Positions 2,292-22,720 of a stretch of DNA of 64,000 nt are shown here, piece after piece. The notes under the pieces were generated by a model. That model was given only the letters and a program-made list of their open reading frames with translations. It ran no database searches and was not told the DNA's origin. Both the position numbers and the translations under genes were made by a program. Each line of letters begins with the position of its first letter. Within the stretch, counting starts at the first letter, position 1. The DNA is from Candidatus Harrisonbacteria bacterium RIFCSPLOWO2_01_FULL_44_18 (GTDB lineage Bacteria; Patescibacteriota; Minisyncoccia; UBA6257; WO2-44-18), in assembly GCA_001817915.1 (NCBI GenBank), contig MHJJ01000014.1, positions 3,695 to 67,694 of the forward strand, in the 5' to 3' direction.

Positions 2292-2323
2292 TACTTCTAT
2301 TTCACAATCGGAATATAGAAGTA
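2292..2323. repeat. hairpin repeat family tacttctatttcacaatcgNNNNatagaagta (copy 1)
   Basis: 9-bp arms tacttctat / atagaagta. A near-identical copy lies at 54723-54754. Confidence 0.8.
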
Positions 2324-2456
2324 TTAACTTGAACGGTTATACGCCCCCTTGTAGCCAGTTTATTTTTATAGTAGGATATATCTATTGTTATATTGTATGG
2401 TTTGACGCGGCTCACCATAAAATGGCACGAATGGTAATCATCATGCGAAAAATCTT

Positions 2457-2846
2457 ATGATTGATTCTGAAACTAACAAAAAAATAAAGCCGGGCGCCGT
2501 GGTGCGTGTTTGGGAGAAAATACTCGCCGAGGGCGGGTCTTCGCCCGACGCCTCGTCAAAGGCAAGCGCGTCTCGGGAGCGCGCTTCTAGTGGAAAAGAA
2601 AGCGATAAATTCCGCTTTAGCAAGTTTGAAGGCCTTGTTTTGGCAAGAAAGCACGGCAATGAGTCCGGAGCCAGTTTTATTGTTCGCGCCACCGTTGCCG
2701 GCGTGGGCGTTGAAAAAGTTTATCCTATTCATTCGCCAATGATTGAAAAAGCGGAAATTATCAGTTCGCCTAAAAAAGTGCGCCGCGCCAAACTTTATTA
2801 CGTTCGCGGACTTTCTAAAAAAGAAACACGCCAGAAATTGGGATAA
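2457..2846 (+). CDS. rplS: 50S ribosomal protein L19
   Basis: The C-terminal part FEGLVLARKHGNESGASFIVRATVAGVGVEKVYPIHSPMIEKAEII..VRRAKLYYVR matches the L19 signature. Carries a Ser/Ala-rich insert of about 22 aa after EG. Confidence 0.9.
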   Translation: MIDSETNKKIKPGAVVRVWEKILAEGGSSPDASSKASASRERASSGKESDKFRFSKFEGLVLARKHGNESGASFIVRATVAGVGVEKVYPIHSPMIEKAEIISSPKKVRRAKLYYVRGLSKKETRQKLG

Positions 2847-2876
2847 TGATTGAAAAACGGGATATTTTTAAATCCT

Positions 2877-2958
2877 GCCCAGGTGGAGGAATCGGCAGAC
2901 TCACTACTTTGAGGTGGTAGCGCCGTAAGGCATGCGGGTTCGAATCCCGCCCTGGGCA
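2877..2958 (+). tRNA. tRNA-Leu(GAG)
   Basis: Manual cloverleaf: acceptor GCCCAGG/CCTGGGC, anticodon stem CTACT/GGTAG, loop TTGAGGT, long variable arm, T-arm GGGTTCGAATCCC. No encoded CCA. Confidence 0.85.
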
Positions 2959-2959
2959 C

Positions 2960-2987
2960 TTGACAAATTCTGTGGATATGCTATAAC
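2960..2987 (+). promoter_or_regulatory. sigma70-like promoter TTGACA-16-TATAAC (TGC-extended -10)
   Basis: cTTGACAaattctgtggatatgcTATAAC begins 2 nt after tRNA-Leu. It has the same architecture as the promoters at 13983 and 22190. Confidence 0.6.
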
Positions 2988-3079
2988 AGGGTTATACTTG
3001 AGTTGGGCGAGCTTATCGTGAGCTCGCTTGATAGCTCAAGGAATCAGTTCTTTGGCAAGGTTTTTGAGTAGGAGGCGCT

Positions 3080-3427
3080 ATGAGTGCTCTCACGATCGTT
3101 CTGGCGGCCAGCATTGTCATCATGGTTTTCGCGGCGGCCCTGATCTACAAGAGCAGGAAGTCCGGGAATCGCAGCGGCCTCGCGTCGGCGGATCAGCCCG
3201 CGCGTCCTCGCCCGAAGGTTCGGTTCGGCCAGTTCGAGACCGACCAACGGGTGGCCGTGCGTGGCATCGATCTCTTCGGGCGAGTCGAAGATCGCATGAT
3301 CGGCATGGGCAGGATCGTCGGCTTTGCCAATGGTGGCCGGGCGGTTCTTCAGATGGACAACCATCGGCCCGGCGTGTTCGTACGGCGAGTCATGCGCCGC
3401 CTCCGTTCGCTTGAGGTGCCTCGCTAG
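3080..3427 (+). CDS. hypothetical single-pass membrane protein encoded in a GC-rich island
   Basis: 115 aa. AGGAGG lies 6 nt upstream. N-terminal TM segment LTIVLAASIVIMVFAAALIY. Third codon positions are about 80% G/C in this frame, which favours it over the antisense ORF in the same register. Confidence 0.65.
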   Translation: MSALTIVLAASIVIMVFAAALIYKSRKSGNRSGLASADQPARPRPKVRFGQFETDQRVAVRGIDLFGRVEDRMIGMGRIVGFANGGRAVLQMDNHRPGVFVRRVMRRLRSLEVPR

Positions 3428-3543
3428 TATCTCGGTTCGACGGTAGAAGATCGTGGTTTCCGCTACGGTCGCAGTAACTTCCGTAGCGGACTCCTCGGCC
3501 TTCTGAAAAGGCCGACCACCACTCTCTCGGTTCGTCAGCGGAC

Positions 3544-3583
3544 GGCCGCCCAAGGTAACCCCTTGAGGCGGCCATTTTTTTTT
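3544..3583 (+). terminator. intrinsic terminator closing the GC-rich island
   Basis: Stem ggccgcc / ggcggcc followed by a T9 run. Two more hairpins lie upstream (ccgctacgg/ccgtagcgg at 3461-3491; tcggcc/ggccga). Confidence 0.75.
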
Positions 3584-3603
3584 GATAAAATCATATTACC
3601 GAT

Positions 3604-4119
3604 ATGTATGAATGTTGCACTGAAGCGATAGTTTTAGATAAAGAAGATTTAGGCGAGGCGGACGCCCGAGTTTTTTTATTTACAAAATCGTTAGGTAAAG
3701 TTGTGGCGAAAGTTAAAAGCGCGAAAAAAATAACTTCAAAACTATCTTCGCATTTGGAACCGCTGAATTTAATAACCGTCCGGCTGGTGGAAAAGAACGG
3801 TTTTCAAGTGGTAGATGTTTTATCGAATCGGAAACTCCCGCAATCAGAGCTTCATATTTTAAATATGGTTAATCAGCTAAGCGCCGAGAATCAGCAAGAT
3901 CTTGAACTTTGGTCGGTTTTGACCGGCAGCATTGATTTAAGGCCGGTTGATTTTCAGAAACAAATTTTGAGCGCCTTGGGCTTTGATCCGAAATTCGCGA
4001 GTTGTCAAAATTGCGACAGACCCAGACCAGATTATTTTTCTTTGCTTGATACGAGTTACTTATGCCAAATTTGCGCGTTAAAATCAGGGGTTAGACAAAA
4101 TTGTTTTAAATTAAATTAG
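3604..4119 (+). CDS. recO: DNA repair protein RecO (short form)
   Basis: 171 aa. N-terminal OB-like EAIVLDKEDLGEADARVFLFTK and C-terminal Cys pairs CQNC..CQIC are typical of RecO. Confidence 0.7.
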   Translation: MYECCTEAIVLDKEDLGEADARVFLFTKSLGKVVAKVKSAKKITSKLSSHLEPLNLITVRLVEKNGFQVVDVLSNRKLPQSELHILNMVNQLSAENQQDLELWSVLTGSIDLRPVDFQKQILSALGFDPKFASCQNCDRPRPDYFSLLDTSYLCQICALKSGVRQNCFKLN

Positions 4120-4121
4120 TT

Positions 4122-5840
4122 ATGCTAACGAAACTTTATTGGATTTTAGCAATTGTTTTAATTTTGCTTATCGGTTTAGCCGGATTTTTTTGGTTTCAAT
4201 CCCGTTCAAATCAAGGCTTGGATTTGCAAATTAACGCTCCCGACGAAGTTTTAATTGGAGTGCCTTTTGATTTGGAAATCAACGTAACCAACGATTCCGG
4301 CGGCATTTTAAAAGACAGCAAACTTTCATTGGCCATTCCCGAAGATGTCGTGTTTGTGGGAAGCGCCGTCGGTAAAACCGTGGAATATAAAACATTGGGC
4401 AATTTGGGCGTCGGCAATTTGACCAAAGAAAGTTTTAAACTGATGGCGTTGGGCGAGGAGAATAGCTTGAGGCAAATCGAAGCCACCCTTAGTTATTTGC
4501 CGACTTCTTTGGGATCGCGATTTGAAATCGTAAAAAAAATTGATTTGGAAGCGGGCCAATTCGGCTTAGTTGTTGATTTAACGGCGCCGGAAAAAGTTTT
4601 CAGCGGCGAAGATTTTGAGATCGCCGCTTCTTATAAAAATGTTTCCGGCATTGATCTTTCGGGCCTTATCCTTAAAATGGAATATCCGCCGACGTTTAAT
4701 TTTATAGAATCTTCCTTGGAGCCGGACGCCGGGAACAATGTTTGGAATTTGGGAGATTTGCGGCGAGGTTCGGAAATGGAATTTAAAATAAAAGGAAACC
4801 TTATCGGCCCGGACGATTCATTTTTTGATTTAAGAGCCAGCCTAGAGGCCAATTTTTTGGGTAAAACCTATGTCATCAGCGGTAAATCGGCCAACGTCTC
4901 TATTTCGCCGTCGCCGCTCTCTTTGCGAATTTTCCTAAACGAGGATCCTGATTATGTTGCCGGGCCGGGCGATGTTTTAAATTATTCTCTGGCCTACGCC
5001 AACAACACCGACGTCGCGCTGCGGGACGTTGTTATTGAAGCGAAATTAATCGGTGAAATGTTTGACCTAAAAACTTTAAATACTAACGGAATTACCCGTT
5101 CCGGTGAAAACGCGCTGGTTTGGAACGCGTCAAATTTGCCCGAGCTGGCAGTTTTACCGGTCGGCGCTTCCGGGACAGTGAATTTTCAGACAAAAGTCGC
5201 GAACAGCTACCCCATAAAAAGATTGAGCGATAAAAATTTTGTTCTAAAAGCGGAAGCTCAAATTGAGTCGCCGACTGTGCCGTATTTTGTGGGAGCGCGG
5301 AAAACAGTCGGTCTGGCAAAGCTGGAAACTAAAGTTGCCGGGCAAATAAAAGTTGATACCAAAGTGTATTTTCGAGACGCGGCTTCAGGAATTTTGAATA
5401 AAGGGCCGATGCCTCTTAAAGCGGGGCAACCGACTCAATTTACCGCGCATTGGTTTATTACTAATTTTGGAACAGACGTCAGCGGCGTGGAAGTCAGAGC
5501 ATTTTTGGAAGGAAATGTTAGAATGATAGCAGATAAAACAAAGAGCAATAGCGGCGCTCTTCCGGTTTATAACGAAAGAACGCAGGAAGTGGTTTGGCTG
5601 ATAGATCGGATTCCGGCTACTAAAGGAGTAATCGGCGACCCCCTTGAGGCGATTTTTCAAATTGAGGCAATGCCTTCCGCTAATTTGGCCGGGACTTATA
5701 TGCCGCTTATAAAAAATAGCTCAATAACCGCCACGGACGATTTTACCGGATTAAAATTAAGCGGTTCGGATTTAGCCGCGACCACCGCGCTGCCGGACGA
5801 TCCGACAGTCGGTCCGCAAGGCGGCATCGTTAAGAATTAG
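4122..5840 (+). CDS. hypothetical membrane-anchored surface protein with repeated beta-rich segments
   Basis: 572 aa with an N-terminal TM segment (LYWILAIVLILLIGLAGFFWF). Long ORF, no domain I can name confidently. Confidence 0.6.
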   Translation: MLTKLYWILAIVLILLIGLAGFFWFQSRSNQGLDLQINAPDEVLIGVPFDLEINVTNDSGGILKDSKLSLAIPEDVVFVGSAVGKTVEYKTLGNLGVGNLTKESFKLMALGEENSLRQIEATLSYLPTSLGSRFEIVKKIDLEAGQFGLVVDLTAPEKVFSGEDFEIAASYKNVSGIDLSGLILKMEYPPTFNFIESSLEPDAGNNVWNLGDLRRGSEMEFKIKGNLIGPDDSFFDLRASLEANFLGKTYVISGKSANVSISPSPLSLRIFLNEDPDYVAGPGDVLNYSLAYANNTDVALRDVVIEAKLIGEMFDLKTLNTNGITRSGENALVWNASNLPELAVLPVGASGTVNFQTKVANSYPIKRLSDKNFVLKAEAQIESPTVPYFVGARKTVGLAKLETKVAGQIKVDTKVYFRDAASGILNKGPMPLKAGQPTQFTAHWFITNFGTDVSGVEVRAFLEGNVRMIADKTKSNSGALPVYNERTQEVVWLIDRIPATKGVIGDPLEAIFQIEAMPSANLAGTYMPLIKNSSITATDDFTGLKLSGSDLAATTALPDDPTVGPQGGIVKN

Positions 5841-5971
5841 GATTTTCCGTCAGAGGCGGATTCGCCTTCGGCGGAGGAATACAGAATTTAGGATTTAGGT
5901 ATAGGATTGGATAAATTCTACTTCCCTAAATTCTAAATTCTATATCCTATATTCTATTTTCAAAATCAACT

Positions 5972-13982: not shown

Positions 13983-14010
13983 TTGACAAATTTTATAGGT
14001 TTGCTATTAT
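13983..14010 (+). promoter_or_regulatory. sigma70-like promoter TTGACA-16-TATTAT
   Basis: cTTGACAaattttataggtttgcTATTAT shares the cTTGACAAATT...TGCTAT pattern with 2960 and 22190. Confidence 0.55.
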
Positions 14011-14061
14011 ATGGGAAGTTCGTTGATTGCTTTTCGAGGGCCATTTTCAGAAGGAGGAGCG

Positions 14062-14652
14062 ATGGAAGCGATGAGTAAGAACCATTGCTGTCTTTGTCAT
14101 AGTAATCCCGCCGAGGGTTTTTGCGTCTGTGATTGCAAGGAGCTGGCGAAGAACGCGCAGGCTGCGCCGGTTGCTTCGCCTGCGAATGCCGTTGCGGTTA
14201 TGCCCGATTTTCGGTTCAGCGTTCTTGAGCAAGCGCTTTTCCCGGTAATTGGTCTTTGGAATATTTTGGTGGGTTTAGTGAGAGGGATTTCCATAGCCTT
14301 GGGGTGTGCGGTAGTTTTGGGTTTGTGTACTTGGGTAATGCCAACTGCCGCGCGTAAGGGTTGTGTCGTTGACCACGCTAGTGCCAGCACGGACTGGAGT
14401 GCCATTTTTTTGGTTGGTTTATTGTTTTATCCGCTCTTTATTGTACTGGTTGTGTTCTTGGTTTTGTCTATTGGCGCGGCAATCGTGAGCGGTGATTGGG
14501 CTGGTTCAACGAAATGGGAGCAAAGCTACGACTATCTATTTAGCTACATTCAGCCCTTTTTAATTCCTCTTGCCGTTACCAACGCCTTGAGTCTCCTCTA
14601 CGAAATCGGCCGCACTAAGAGGAAGTTCGCTCAAGCGCCGATCAAGGTCTAA
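14062..14652 (+). CDS. hypothetical membrane protein with a Cys-rich N-terminus
   Basis: Start chosen at MEAMSKNH, behind AAGGAGGAG. Contains CCLCHSNPAEGFCVCDC followed by about 4 TM segments. Confidence 0.55.
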   Translation: MEAMSKNHCCLCHSNPAEGFCVCDCKELAKNAQAAPVASPANAVAVMPDFRFSVLEQALFPVIGLWNILVGLVRGISIALGCAVVLGLCTWVMPTAARKGCVVDHASASTDWSAIFLVGLLFYPLFIVLVVFLVLSIGAAIVSGDWAGSTKWEQSYDYLFSYIQPFLIPLAVTNALSLLYEIGRTKRKFAQAPIKV

Positions 14653-22167: not shown

Positions 22168-22196
22168 ATTATATTCGATCTTCGGCAACTTGACAA
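22168..22196 (-). promoter_or_regulatory. sigma70-like promoter TTGTCA-17-TATAAT driving the minus-strand tRNA cluster
   Basis: Minus strand reads TTGTCAagttgccgaagatcgaaTATAAT and ends 8 nt before the first tRNA nucleotide (22159). Its -35 overlaps the plus-strand -35. Confidence 0.6.
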
Positions 22197-22217
22197 ATTA
22201 TGTAGACCTGCTATAAT
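22190..22217 (+). promoter_or_regulatory. sigma70-like promoter TTGACA-16-TATAAT for the 3D-domain gene
   Basis: cTTGACAaattatgtagacctgcTATAAT. Confidence 0.65.
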
Positions 22218-22258
22218 TTGGTTAAAGTGCGATAGTTCCCCGAAGGGGGATTTTTTTT

Positions 22259-22720
22259 ATGAATAAGAACATAGGCATCATATTCATTTTCGCCTTGACT
22301 CTGCCGACAACTTTCGCGGGGCAGCTTTATATTGTCGCCCCAGTCTTTGGTGAAGAAACTAACATTTTGGACATTCTTAGCAATCAAATAGCCGTTAGTT
22401 CTCTTTCGGGCGACATGCCGTTTTTTAATAATTCGGCGAGGATGAACGTTGTTGTCACCGGTTATTCTTCCACTCATGATCAAACAGACAGCACCCCGTT
22501 TATTACTGCTTCAGGGAAGCGGGTGCGGGACGGAATTATCGCCGCTAATTTTTTGAAGTTTGGCGCTCGGATTCAGATTCCGGAAATCTTCGGCGACAAG
22601 ATTTTTGTTGTTGAAGATCGGATGGCTCGCCGGTTTTCTGATCGGGTTGATATTTGGTTTCCGGACAGGGCGACGGCTTTAAAATTCGGGAAAAAAGAAG
22701 TGGAGATTGTTATACTCTAA
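22259..22720 (+). CDS. 3D domain-containing protein (RlpA/MltA-like DPBB fold), secreted
   Basis: 153 aa with a signal-like N-terminus. VVVTGYSSTHDQTDSTPFITASGKRVRDGIIAAN and VEDRMARRFSDRVDIWF are typical of 3D domains. Confidence 0.75.
   Translation: MNKNIGIIFIFALTLPTTFAGQLYIVAPVFGEETNILDILSNQIAVSSLSGDMPFFNNSARMNVVVTGYSSTHDQTDSTPFITASGKRVRDGIIAANFLKFGARIQIPEIFGDKIFVVEDRMARRFSDRVDIWFPDRATALKFGKKEVEIVIL

Follow-up and report, generated by a model that had tools for sequence, protein, structure and literature searches.

The locus described here lies in a 64-kb stretch of DNA, referred to as the window, from a metagenome-assembled groundwater genome of Candidatus Harrisonbacteria. Within it, a GC-rich island of 0.6 kb directly follows the gene of tRNA-Leu(GAG) and carries one open reading frame (ORF) for a protein of 115 aa, termed ORF115. 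An original prediction, made from the DNA letters, had described the island as a self-contained cassette of foreign composition, suggestive of horizontal acquisition and with a chimeric assembly as the alternative.

All features lie on the plus strand unless stated otherwise. The tRNA-Leu(GAG) gene occupies positions 2877 to 2959 (ARAGORN; Rfam tRNA, 49.2 bits), and its 3′ end abuts the −35 box of a sigma-70–type, TG-extended promoter (2960–2987), which consists of TTGACA at 2960 to 2965, a 16-nt spacer, and the −10 element TGCTATAAC at 2979 to 2987. The 5′-untranslated region (UTR) contains a predicted stem-loop of 19 bp with a 3-nt bulge (2997–3040), which corresponds to the palindrome noticed before. 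The Shine–Dalgarno (SD) sequence AGGAGG (3070–3075) is placed 4 nt ahead of the ATG at 3080. A weak predicted hairpin at 3050 to 3084 spans both the SD and the AUG and could mask them, with a z of only −2.1. ORF115 itself extends from 3080 to 3427 and is deposited as GenBank OGY63070.1, annotated as a hypothetical protein of Candidatus Harrisonbacteria. It is followed by a structured 3′-UTR element (3432–3542) that is predicted to be Y-shaped, with a closing stem around two hairpins at 3459 to 3490 and 3495 to 3515, the first of which has a perfect 9-bp stem (3460–3468/3481–3489). Compared with shuffled sequences, the fold of the 3′ UTR reaches z = −5.57 (0 of 200 shuffles equally stable), and the whole transcript also folds better than its shuffles (z = −3.6). 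An intrinsic terminator (3544–3583) closes the unit with a 12-bp GC-rich stem (3544–3573) and a T9 run (3575–3583); in Rfam at E<10, it shows a weak likeness to ctRNA terminator hairpins and to nothing else. All elements listed by the original prediction, namely promoter, palindrome, SD, 115-aa ORF, hairpins, and T9 terminator, are present where it had placed them. Judged by sequence motifs and predicted folds, promoter, SD, ORF, and terminator make up one self-contained unit.

The island forms the strongest GC peak of the window (approximately 3000–3590), as had been claimed: 3051 to 3550 reaches a GC content of 0.62 to 0.65 in 300-nt windows, against a mean of 0.440 (standard deviation [sd] 0.048) over the 64 kb. 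The composition was, however, said to switch 1 to 2 nt past the tRNA gene, which does not hold. Promoter and 5′ UTR (2960–3079) are still host-like at 0.44, and the excess is found in the coding sequence (0.64) and the 3′ UTR (0.55).

Downstream, recO (3604–4119; Pfam RecO_N, 8.7e-13) is the next gene, and a candidate recO promoter from the promoter scan (3563–3591) overlaps the 3′ side of the island terminator. The neighboring genes are GT4, folD, rplS, recO, a 572-aa unknown, glyS, an M16 peptidase, and an AI-2E transporter. A 10-nt exact direct repeat, TCTCGGTTCG, is present at 3430 to 3439 and 3525 to 3534, flanking both 3′-UTR hairpins that the homologues lack. It could mark a small insertion, yet a repeat of such length is about the chance expectation in 850 nt.

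The promoter of the island is of the host's own type because its motif, TTGACAAAT-N10-TGCTATA, recurs at two other genes of the window, as an exact copy at 22190 and with one mismatch at 13983. With up to three mismatches allowed, the window contains five matches, compared with 0.74 expected. The exact motif also precedes the homologues on contigs L024 to L028. Hence, ORF115 does have its own promoter, as was claimed, but not a foreign one. Downstream of the exact copy at the second site (22190–22260), a short GC hairpin and a run of T8 come immediately ahead of the start codon (ATG) for a secreted or membrane protein of 153 aa, and they may serve as a leader or attenuator. At the third (13983–14652), the motif stands ahead of a Cys-rich multi-pass membrane protein that has no Pfam match, and a minor GC peak of 0.54 is found.

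ORF115 has the signs of a coding gene. Its GC content at codon positions 1, 2, and 3 is 0.67, 0.47, and 0.77 in the plus frame, a classical signature of coding DNA that departs strongly from randomness (chi-square on GC counts, p ~1e-5). Between pairs of homologues, third positions differ by 0.50 to 0.67 compared with 0.35 to 0.51 at positions 1 and 2, and approximately half of the identical residues use different codons. This pattern of divergence reflects purifying selection on a protein. The view that the 115-aa ORF is a real gene is thus borne out by codon periodicity and by homologues at the protein level, and the N-terminal membrane helix ascribed to it is predicted as well. The opposite strand holds a codon-aligned antisense ORF of 169 aa (3044–3553, minus strand) without a Pfam match. 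It was rejected as a gene and regarded as a shadow frame, since the equivalent frame is interrupted in the homologous loci L033 and L035; it is open because the sense codons avoid A at the third position (5 of 115 codons end in A).

A HMMER scan of 1.84 billion representative proteins yielded two full-length homologues of the same architecture, P0004 (101 aa, 39–43% identical) and P0006 (108 aa), and a profile search of 5.8 billion proteins gave no homologue beyond these two. Their contigs have a GC content of 51 to 53%. Both loci contain the exact promoter motif, an SD, and a terminator, followed by tRNA-His(GTG) ~105 nt downstream, an M28 peptidase gene, groES, and groEL. Further members were sought by following the M28 gene into related contigs. 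In L031/L032, L033, and L035, the equivalent position (M48/NlpC–gene–tRNA-His–M28–groES/EL) is taken by genes for proteins of 118, 124, and 131 aa, respectively. These three synteny-found proteins align with the first three over their full length in a six-way alignment; hhalign links them to the first three at 79.8% (E 1.5e-5), and 12 of 24 N-terminal residues are identical between P0006 and the synteny-found members, including the motif AFFFGTKKK. Of the more remote M28 loci, L036 and L037 are not syntenic, L030, with an M28 identity of 55%, has no tRNA-His upstream, and L034 is truncated; these were rejected.

The family accordingly comprises six members in genomes of 44 to 53% GC, each located beside a tRNA gene (1–910 nt) and equipped with its own TTGACA/TGCTATA promoter and a terminator. 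Five of them are syntenic and lie 105 to 910 nt upstream of tRNA-His; the sixth is the Harrisonbacteria copy. The small proteins are 42% and 37 to 46% identical within two subgroups and 24 to 35% between them, and the M28 proteins follow the same division (58% and 55–60% within, 50–57% between). Because the identities of the small protein track those of M28, the comparison indicates vertical descent at the tRNA-His–M28 locus. The host lineage of the homologues is probably Parcubacteria, as judged from the M28 sequence. The neighbor genes on the homologue contigs have no counterpart in the window, and the 5′- and 3′-UTR structures are unique to the Harrisonbacteria copy; the 5′ UTRs of the homologues are shorter and have no stem-loop. 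No significant match to the family was obtained in Pfam, NCBIfam, PHROGs, or PADLOC. Protein-profile scans returned none in viral contigs and, in JGI metagenomes, the window's own sequence only, and a literature search on the Candidate Phyla Radiation (CPR), small membrane proteins, and GC content at third codon positions (GC3) revealed nothing relevant. Taken by these searches, the six proteins form a very small undescribed family that is absent from Pfam and NCBIfam.

Some further features were observed at the homologous loci. In L033 (2141–2180) and L035 (2257–2295), the −35 TTGACA of the family promoter lies inside the loop of the terminator hairpin of the upstream gene (GACCCCTTGACAGGGGTC, then a T run), an extremely compact overlap of terminator and promoter. 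Between the family gene and tRNA-His, L031 contains a hydrophobic mini-ORF of 29 aa (5540–5629) that has an SD and a terminator of its own and whose GC3 is high as well (0.83). In L025 (11–859) and L027 (90–938), an IS3-family (rve) transposase gene is located on the opposite strand, ~180 nt upstream of the P0004 gene.

The third codon positions of all six members are exceptionally rich in G and C. ORF115 has a GC3 of 0.77, compared with 0.37 to 0.49 for its neighboring genes; among 60 long ORFs of the window (mean 0.453, sd 0.05), it lies more than 6 sd out. The claim of ~80% G/C at third positions, unlike the neighbors, is hence well founded. The same is seen in P0004 on L025 (0.75 against 0.55–0.62 in the neighboring genes), P0006 on L028 (0.82 against 0.61–0.62), and the genes of L031 (118 aa; 0.84 against 0.47–0.72), L033 (124 aa; 0.87 against 0.55–0.64), and L035 (131 aa; 0.84 against 0.38–0.55). 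Synonymous sites are saturated among the five syntenic relatives. Because these orthologues have all kept the excess nonetheless, high GC3 appears to be a maintained trait of the family, at equilibrium in each lineage, and not the fading signature of a transfer. This maintained anomaly across diverged syntenic orthologues is the most unusual aspect of the system.

As to its cause, the GC excess would be maintained either through selection at synonymous sites or through a bias specific to this gene. Its confinement to the coding sequence, with AT-rich 5′ UTRs, would argue against a purely regional mutational bias. Expression-linked codon bias was considered unlikely since rplS, groES, and groEL have ordinary GC3, and an overlapping antisense gene was excluded by the interruption of that frame in two homologues. 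mRNA structure was likewise rejected: relative to synonymous shuffles, extra folding is seen in four of the six family genes (z = −2.2 to −3.5), so that the result is inconsistent across the family, and the window copy shows no such excess.

The architecture of the protein was predicted with AlphaFold2 on a three-sequence alignment (mean predicted local distance difference test [pLDDT] 68.6). The model consists of an N-terminal membrane helix (codons 3–28; 3086–3163), followed by the K/R-rich segment KSRKSGNR, a basic linker predicted to be disordered (residues 29–48), and a five-stranded, strongly basic small β-barrel of the SH3/Tudor/KOW type (codons 57–110; 3248–3409; pLDDT 70–80). The isoelectric point (pI) of ORF115 is 11.9, with 9.8 to 11.9 across the family; residues 53 to 115 have a pI of 11.8 and contain 13 K+R in 63 residues. 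As the residues ahead of the helix are uncharged and KSRKSGNR comes after it, the positive-inside rule would place the C-terminal barrel in the cytoplasm and the short N terminus outside.

When a profile of the six sequences was compared with all PDB sequences, the top match, over the whole barrel, was PSHCP (6NNB), the hyper-conserved protein of Prochlorococcus and Synechococcus, with an E of 0.081, which is below significance. PSHCP is a basic Tudor protein of 62 aa that binds tRNA and other RNAs with low-micromolar affinity (10.1101/542068). Its gene lies in the order rpl19–tRNA-Trp–PSHCP–tRNA-Asp–gltX, and a strong promoter is predicted within the tRNA gene (PMC4215834).

Taken together, the island is quite likely a genuine monocistronic Harrisonbacteria gene for a membrane-anchored protein of a small family, whose GC3 excess is a lasting trait. 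Herein, the host-type, TG-extended sigma-70 promoter abutting tRNA-Leu(GAG) would drive a transcript of ~590 nt, comprising the 5′-UTR stem-loop, a strong SD, the 115-codon ORF, the heavily structured 3′ UTR, and the terminator just before recO. The terminal structures would stabilize this monocistronic mRNA. Its product would cross the membrane once and carry, after a basic disordered linker, a cytoplasmic SH3/Tudor/KOW-like barrel that is very basic. By analogy with PSHCP, the barrel may bind RNA, tRNA, or ribosomes at the membrane; this is the weakest step of the explanation and a rather doubtful one.

Several points weigh against this explanation. The structure model derives from an alignment of three sequences only, with the pLDDT given above and a predicted template modeling score of 0.44. 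The hhalign match to PSHCP amounts to 89.8% with the six-member profile but falls to 16% with the three close homologues, the RNA-contact residue R23 of PSHCP aligns with a nonbasic residue, and the composition of PSHCP follows that of its host genome (PMC4215834). Given the subthreshold score, the unconserved R23, the missing anchor, and this host-like composition, PSHCP is a weak lead and not an indication of family membership. The family has six members only, with the two subgroups linked by modest scores plus synteny, and the lineage of the homologue contigs rests on a single named M28 relative, from a "Parcubacteria group bacterium," at 41% identity. For an empty-site comparison, even the nearest available relatives are distant (L19 identity 60–74%). 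Finally, as evidence on the cause of the GC3 excess, the synonymous-shuffle folding z is inconsistent between the window copy (+0.18) and the others (−0.45 to −3.5).

Of the rival explanations, the one that survives best is a recent import from a high-GC donor, be it a bacterium, a host organism, or a phage, into the 3′ end of tRNA-Leu with a composition that is still donor-like. The distance of its GC3 from the window genes and the position directly 3′ of a tRNA gene speak in its favor, as do the related genomes that lack the gene at this site and hold unrelated genes there, and the IS3-type transposase gene immediately upstream of one homologue. However, the sampled high-GC genomes, phages, and plasmids (1.8–5.8 billion proteins; blastn against phage and plasmid collections) yielded no homologue. 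The only relatives are on contigs of 47 to 53% GC, where they are GC3 outliers too. There is no integrase or recombinase within or beside the island, and blastn-short and repeat searches gave neither an att repeat of the tRNA 3′ end nor a terminal repeat, in agreement with what had been noted before. The promoter region is host-type with a host-like GC content, and since saturated syntenic orthologues share the GC3 excess, composition is uninformative on donor or timing. The compositional case for a high-GC donor therefore fails, because a high-GC homologue is missing, the promoter is host-type, and the excess is maintained in the orthologues; an import of this kind is unlikely.

Lateral movement as such is a different matter, and it is made plausible by the location of the gene, not by its composition. 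The Harrisonbacteria copy lies 3′ of tRNA-Leu, compared with 5′ of tRNA-His in the other members. The pair rplS–tRNA-Leu(GAG) is conserved, but the relatives L007, L009, and L015 carry other genes after it: an unrelated 103- to 107-aa membrane protein and HtrA in L007 and L015, and HtrA directly in L009. Because of this different tRNA and the absence from relatives, the Harrisonbacteria copy probably reached this site by relocation or by lateral transfer from another Parcubacteria-like lineage. Of the proposed horizontal acquisition, the location thus still allows movement of the gene, whereas its composition as a sign of a high-GC donor is unsupported.

Two observations concern the sites behind tRNA genes in these relatives. 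In L007 (4547–4870) and L015 (531–842), the slot contains a promoter and a small protein with an N-terminal membrane helix and ordinary GC, then the HtrA-like protease; these slot proteins were examined as ORF115 homologues and rejected for want of similarity. In L031 (5785–5960), a GC-rich insert of ~150 nt lies directly 3′ of tRNA-His and terminates with a directly repeated copy of the tRNA 3′ end (5766–5786, 5936–5956). A 53-nt core of it is 98% identical to the sequence 3′ of tRNA-Leu(GAG) in the Harrisonbacteria-like L009 (4531–4583). This insert has no Rfam match and is absent from the window, and it could represent a mini mobile element or an RNA that targets tRNA 3′ ends in CPR genomes.

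A second rival holds that the island is mainly a structured or dual-function RNA, wherein 3432 to 3583 may be a separate small RNA or an mRNA stabilizer. It draws on the folding of the whole transcript and, above all, of the 3′ UTR (z = −5.6), on the four of six coding sequences that fold better than synonymous shuffles, and on the GC enrichment of the coding sequence, which otherwise has no explanation. Against it, an Rfam search of the whole window at gathering scores returned tRNA only, and a search of 2800 to 3750 at E<10 gave nothing credible in addition. The coding sequence of the window copy has no excess folding, the homologues do not share the 5′/3′ UTR structures, and the clear 3-nt periodicity together with conservation at the protein level marks a coding gene. 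The structured RNA that had been raised in place of a coding cassette is accordingly refuted, and the wider RNA reading is left with a small probability.

Less probable by far is a membrane-active toxin or a moron-like accessory gene, that is, a small hydrophobic protein made from a strong promoter and a stabilized mRNA. Type I toxins are hydrophobic peptides, usually below 60 aa, with an overlapping antisense RNA. The anatomy of promoter, gene, and terminator with atypical composition, the N-terminal hydrophobic helix with structured UTRs, and a very weak PHROG match, in which one homologue hits a MokW-like family (E 0.089), would fit such a gene. However, proteins of 101 to 131 aa with a conserved soluble domain are far above type I toxin size, and no antisense promoter or RNA was evident, though no search aimed at antisense RNA was made. 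Prophage context is missing, with rplS, recO, glyS, and folD as neighbors, PHROG and PADLOC gave no significant match, and in five genomes the gene is stably syntenic beside housekeeping genes.

Last, a chimera in which a foreign 0.6-kb piece was misjoined into the contig, as the abrupt composition change and the origin from a metagenome-assembled genome might suggest, can be dismissed, since native sequence lies on both sides and an internal segment of this size is reproduced by different assemblers. An exact-protein look-up placed the gene on nine contigs, of which six were examined (JGI, ENA/MEGAHIT, and Logan assemblies). All six independent assemblies, from different pipelines and samples, cross both island borders at 99.8 to 100% identity, covering 2295 to 3645 and beyond, which refutes the chimeric assembly that had been the obvious alternative. 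One of them, L002, represents a co-occurring strain with eight single-nucleotide polymorphisms (SNPs) in the flanks, in clusters of four at 317 to 346 and 3718 to 3747. The short contigs end at these SNP clusters and not at the island borders.

The preferred reading, a genuine family gene with a lasting GC3 excess, bears on how such loci are interpreted: it is routine to take an atypical composition beside a tRNA gene for horizontal transfer, yet a GC3 outlier can be a stable family property. A more far-reaching and speculative version, which is improbable as a whole, would see a Parcubacteria-specific, membrane-anchored PSHCP-like Tudor family, encoded beside tRNA genes, by which tRNA, RNA, or ribosomes are tethered at the membrane. 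The GC3 of ~0.8 would be actively held, by selection on the mRNA (RNase resistance or a structure-dependent function) or by GC-biased conversion at a tRNA-flanked recombination hot spot. If so, the anomaly in composition would be a heritable one that imitates horizontal transfer. With mRNA selection or biased conversion as the cause, the small family would serve as a compact test case in uncultivable genomes. If the kinship with PSHCP were true, a translation-linked Tudor protein known only from picocyanobacteria would extend to the CPR, with a membrane-tethered candidate; otherwise, ORF115 is one more uncharacterized small protein.

Among known systems, phage morons are single-gene promoter–ORF–terminator insertions of atypical composition in lambdoid phages. 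The island resembles them in its predicted own sigma-70 promoter, single ORF, intrinsic terminator, and deviant composition; it differs in that its neighbors are housekeeping genes and not a prophage, no phage homologues exist among the matches, and the orthologues are stably syntenic. With GC-rich structural RNA genes of AT-rich genomes, it shares a local GC peak, stable predicted hairpins, and the place beside a tRNA gene, whereas codon periodicity, protein homologues, and the lack of an Rfam match set it apart. tRNA-linked islands and islets likewise lie directly 3′ of a tRNA gene at a synteny break and have an atypical composition. In contrast to these, the present island spans only 0.6 kb and has no integrase, duplicated tRNA 3′ end, or flanking repeats, and the family members elsewhere are found 5′ of tRNA-His, a position not of the integration type. 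PSHCP, finally, has neither the membrane anchor nor the linker of ORF115. It is hyper-conserved and occurs in a different phylum, whereas the ORF115 family evolves fast (24–46% identity) and has an aberrant GC3. Both proteins are, however, strongly basic, and the order rplS–tRNA-Leu–promoter–ORF115 parallels rpl19–tRNA-Trp–PSHCP.

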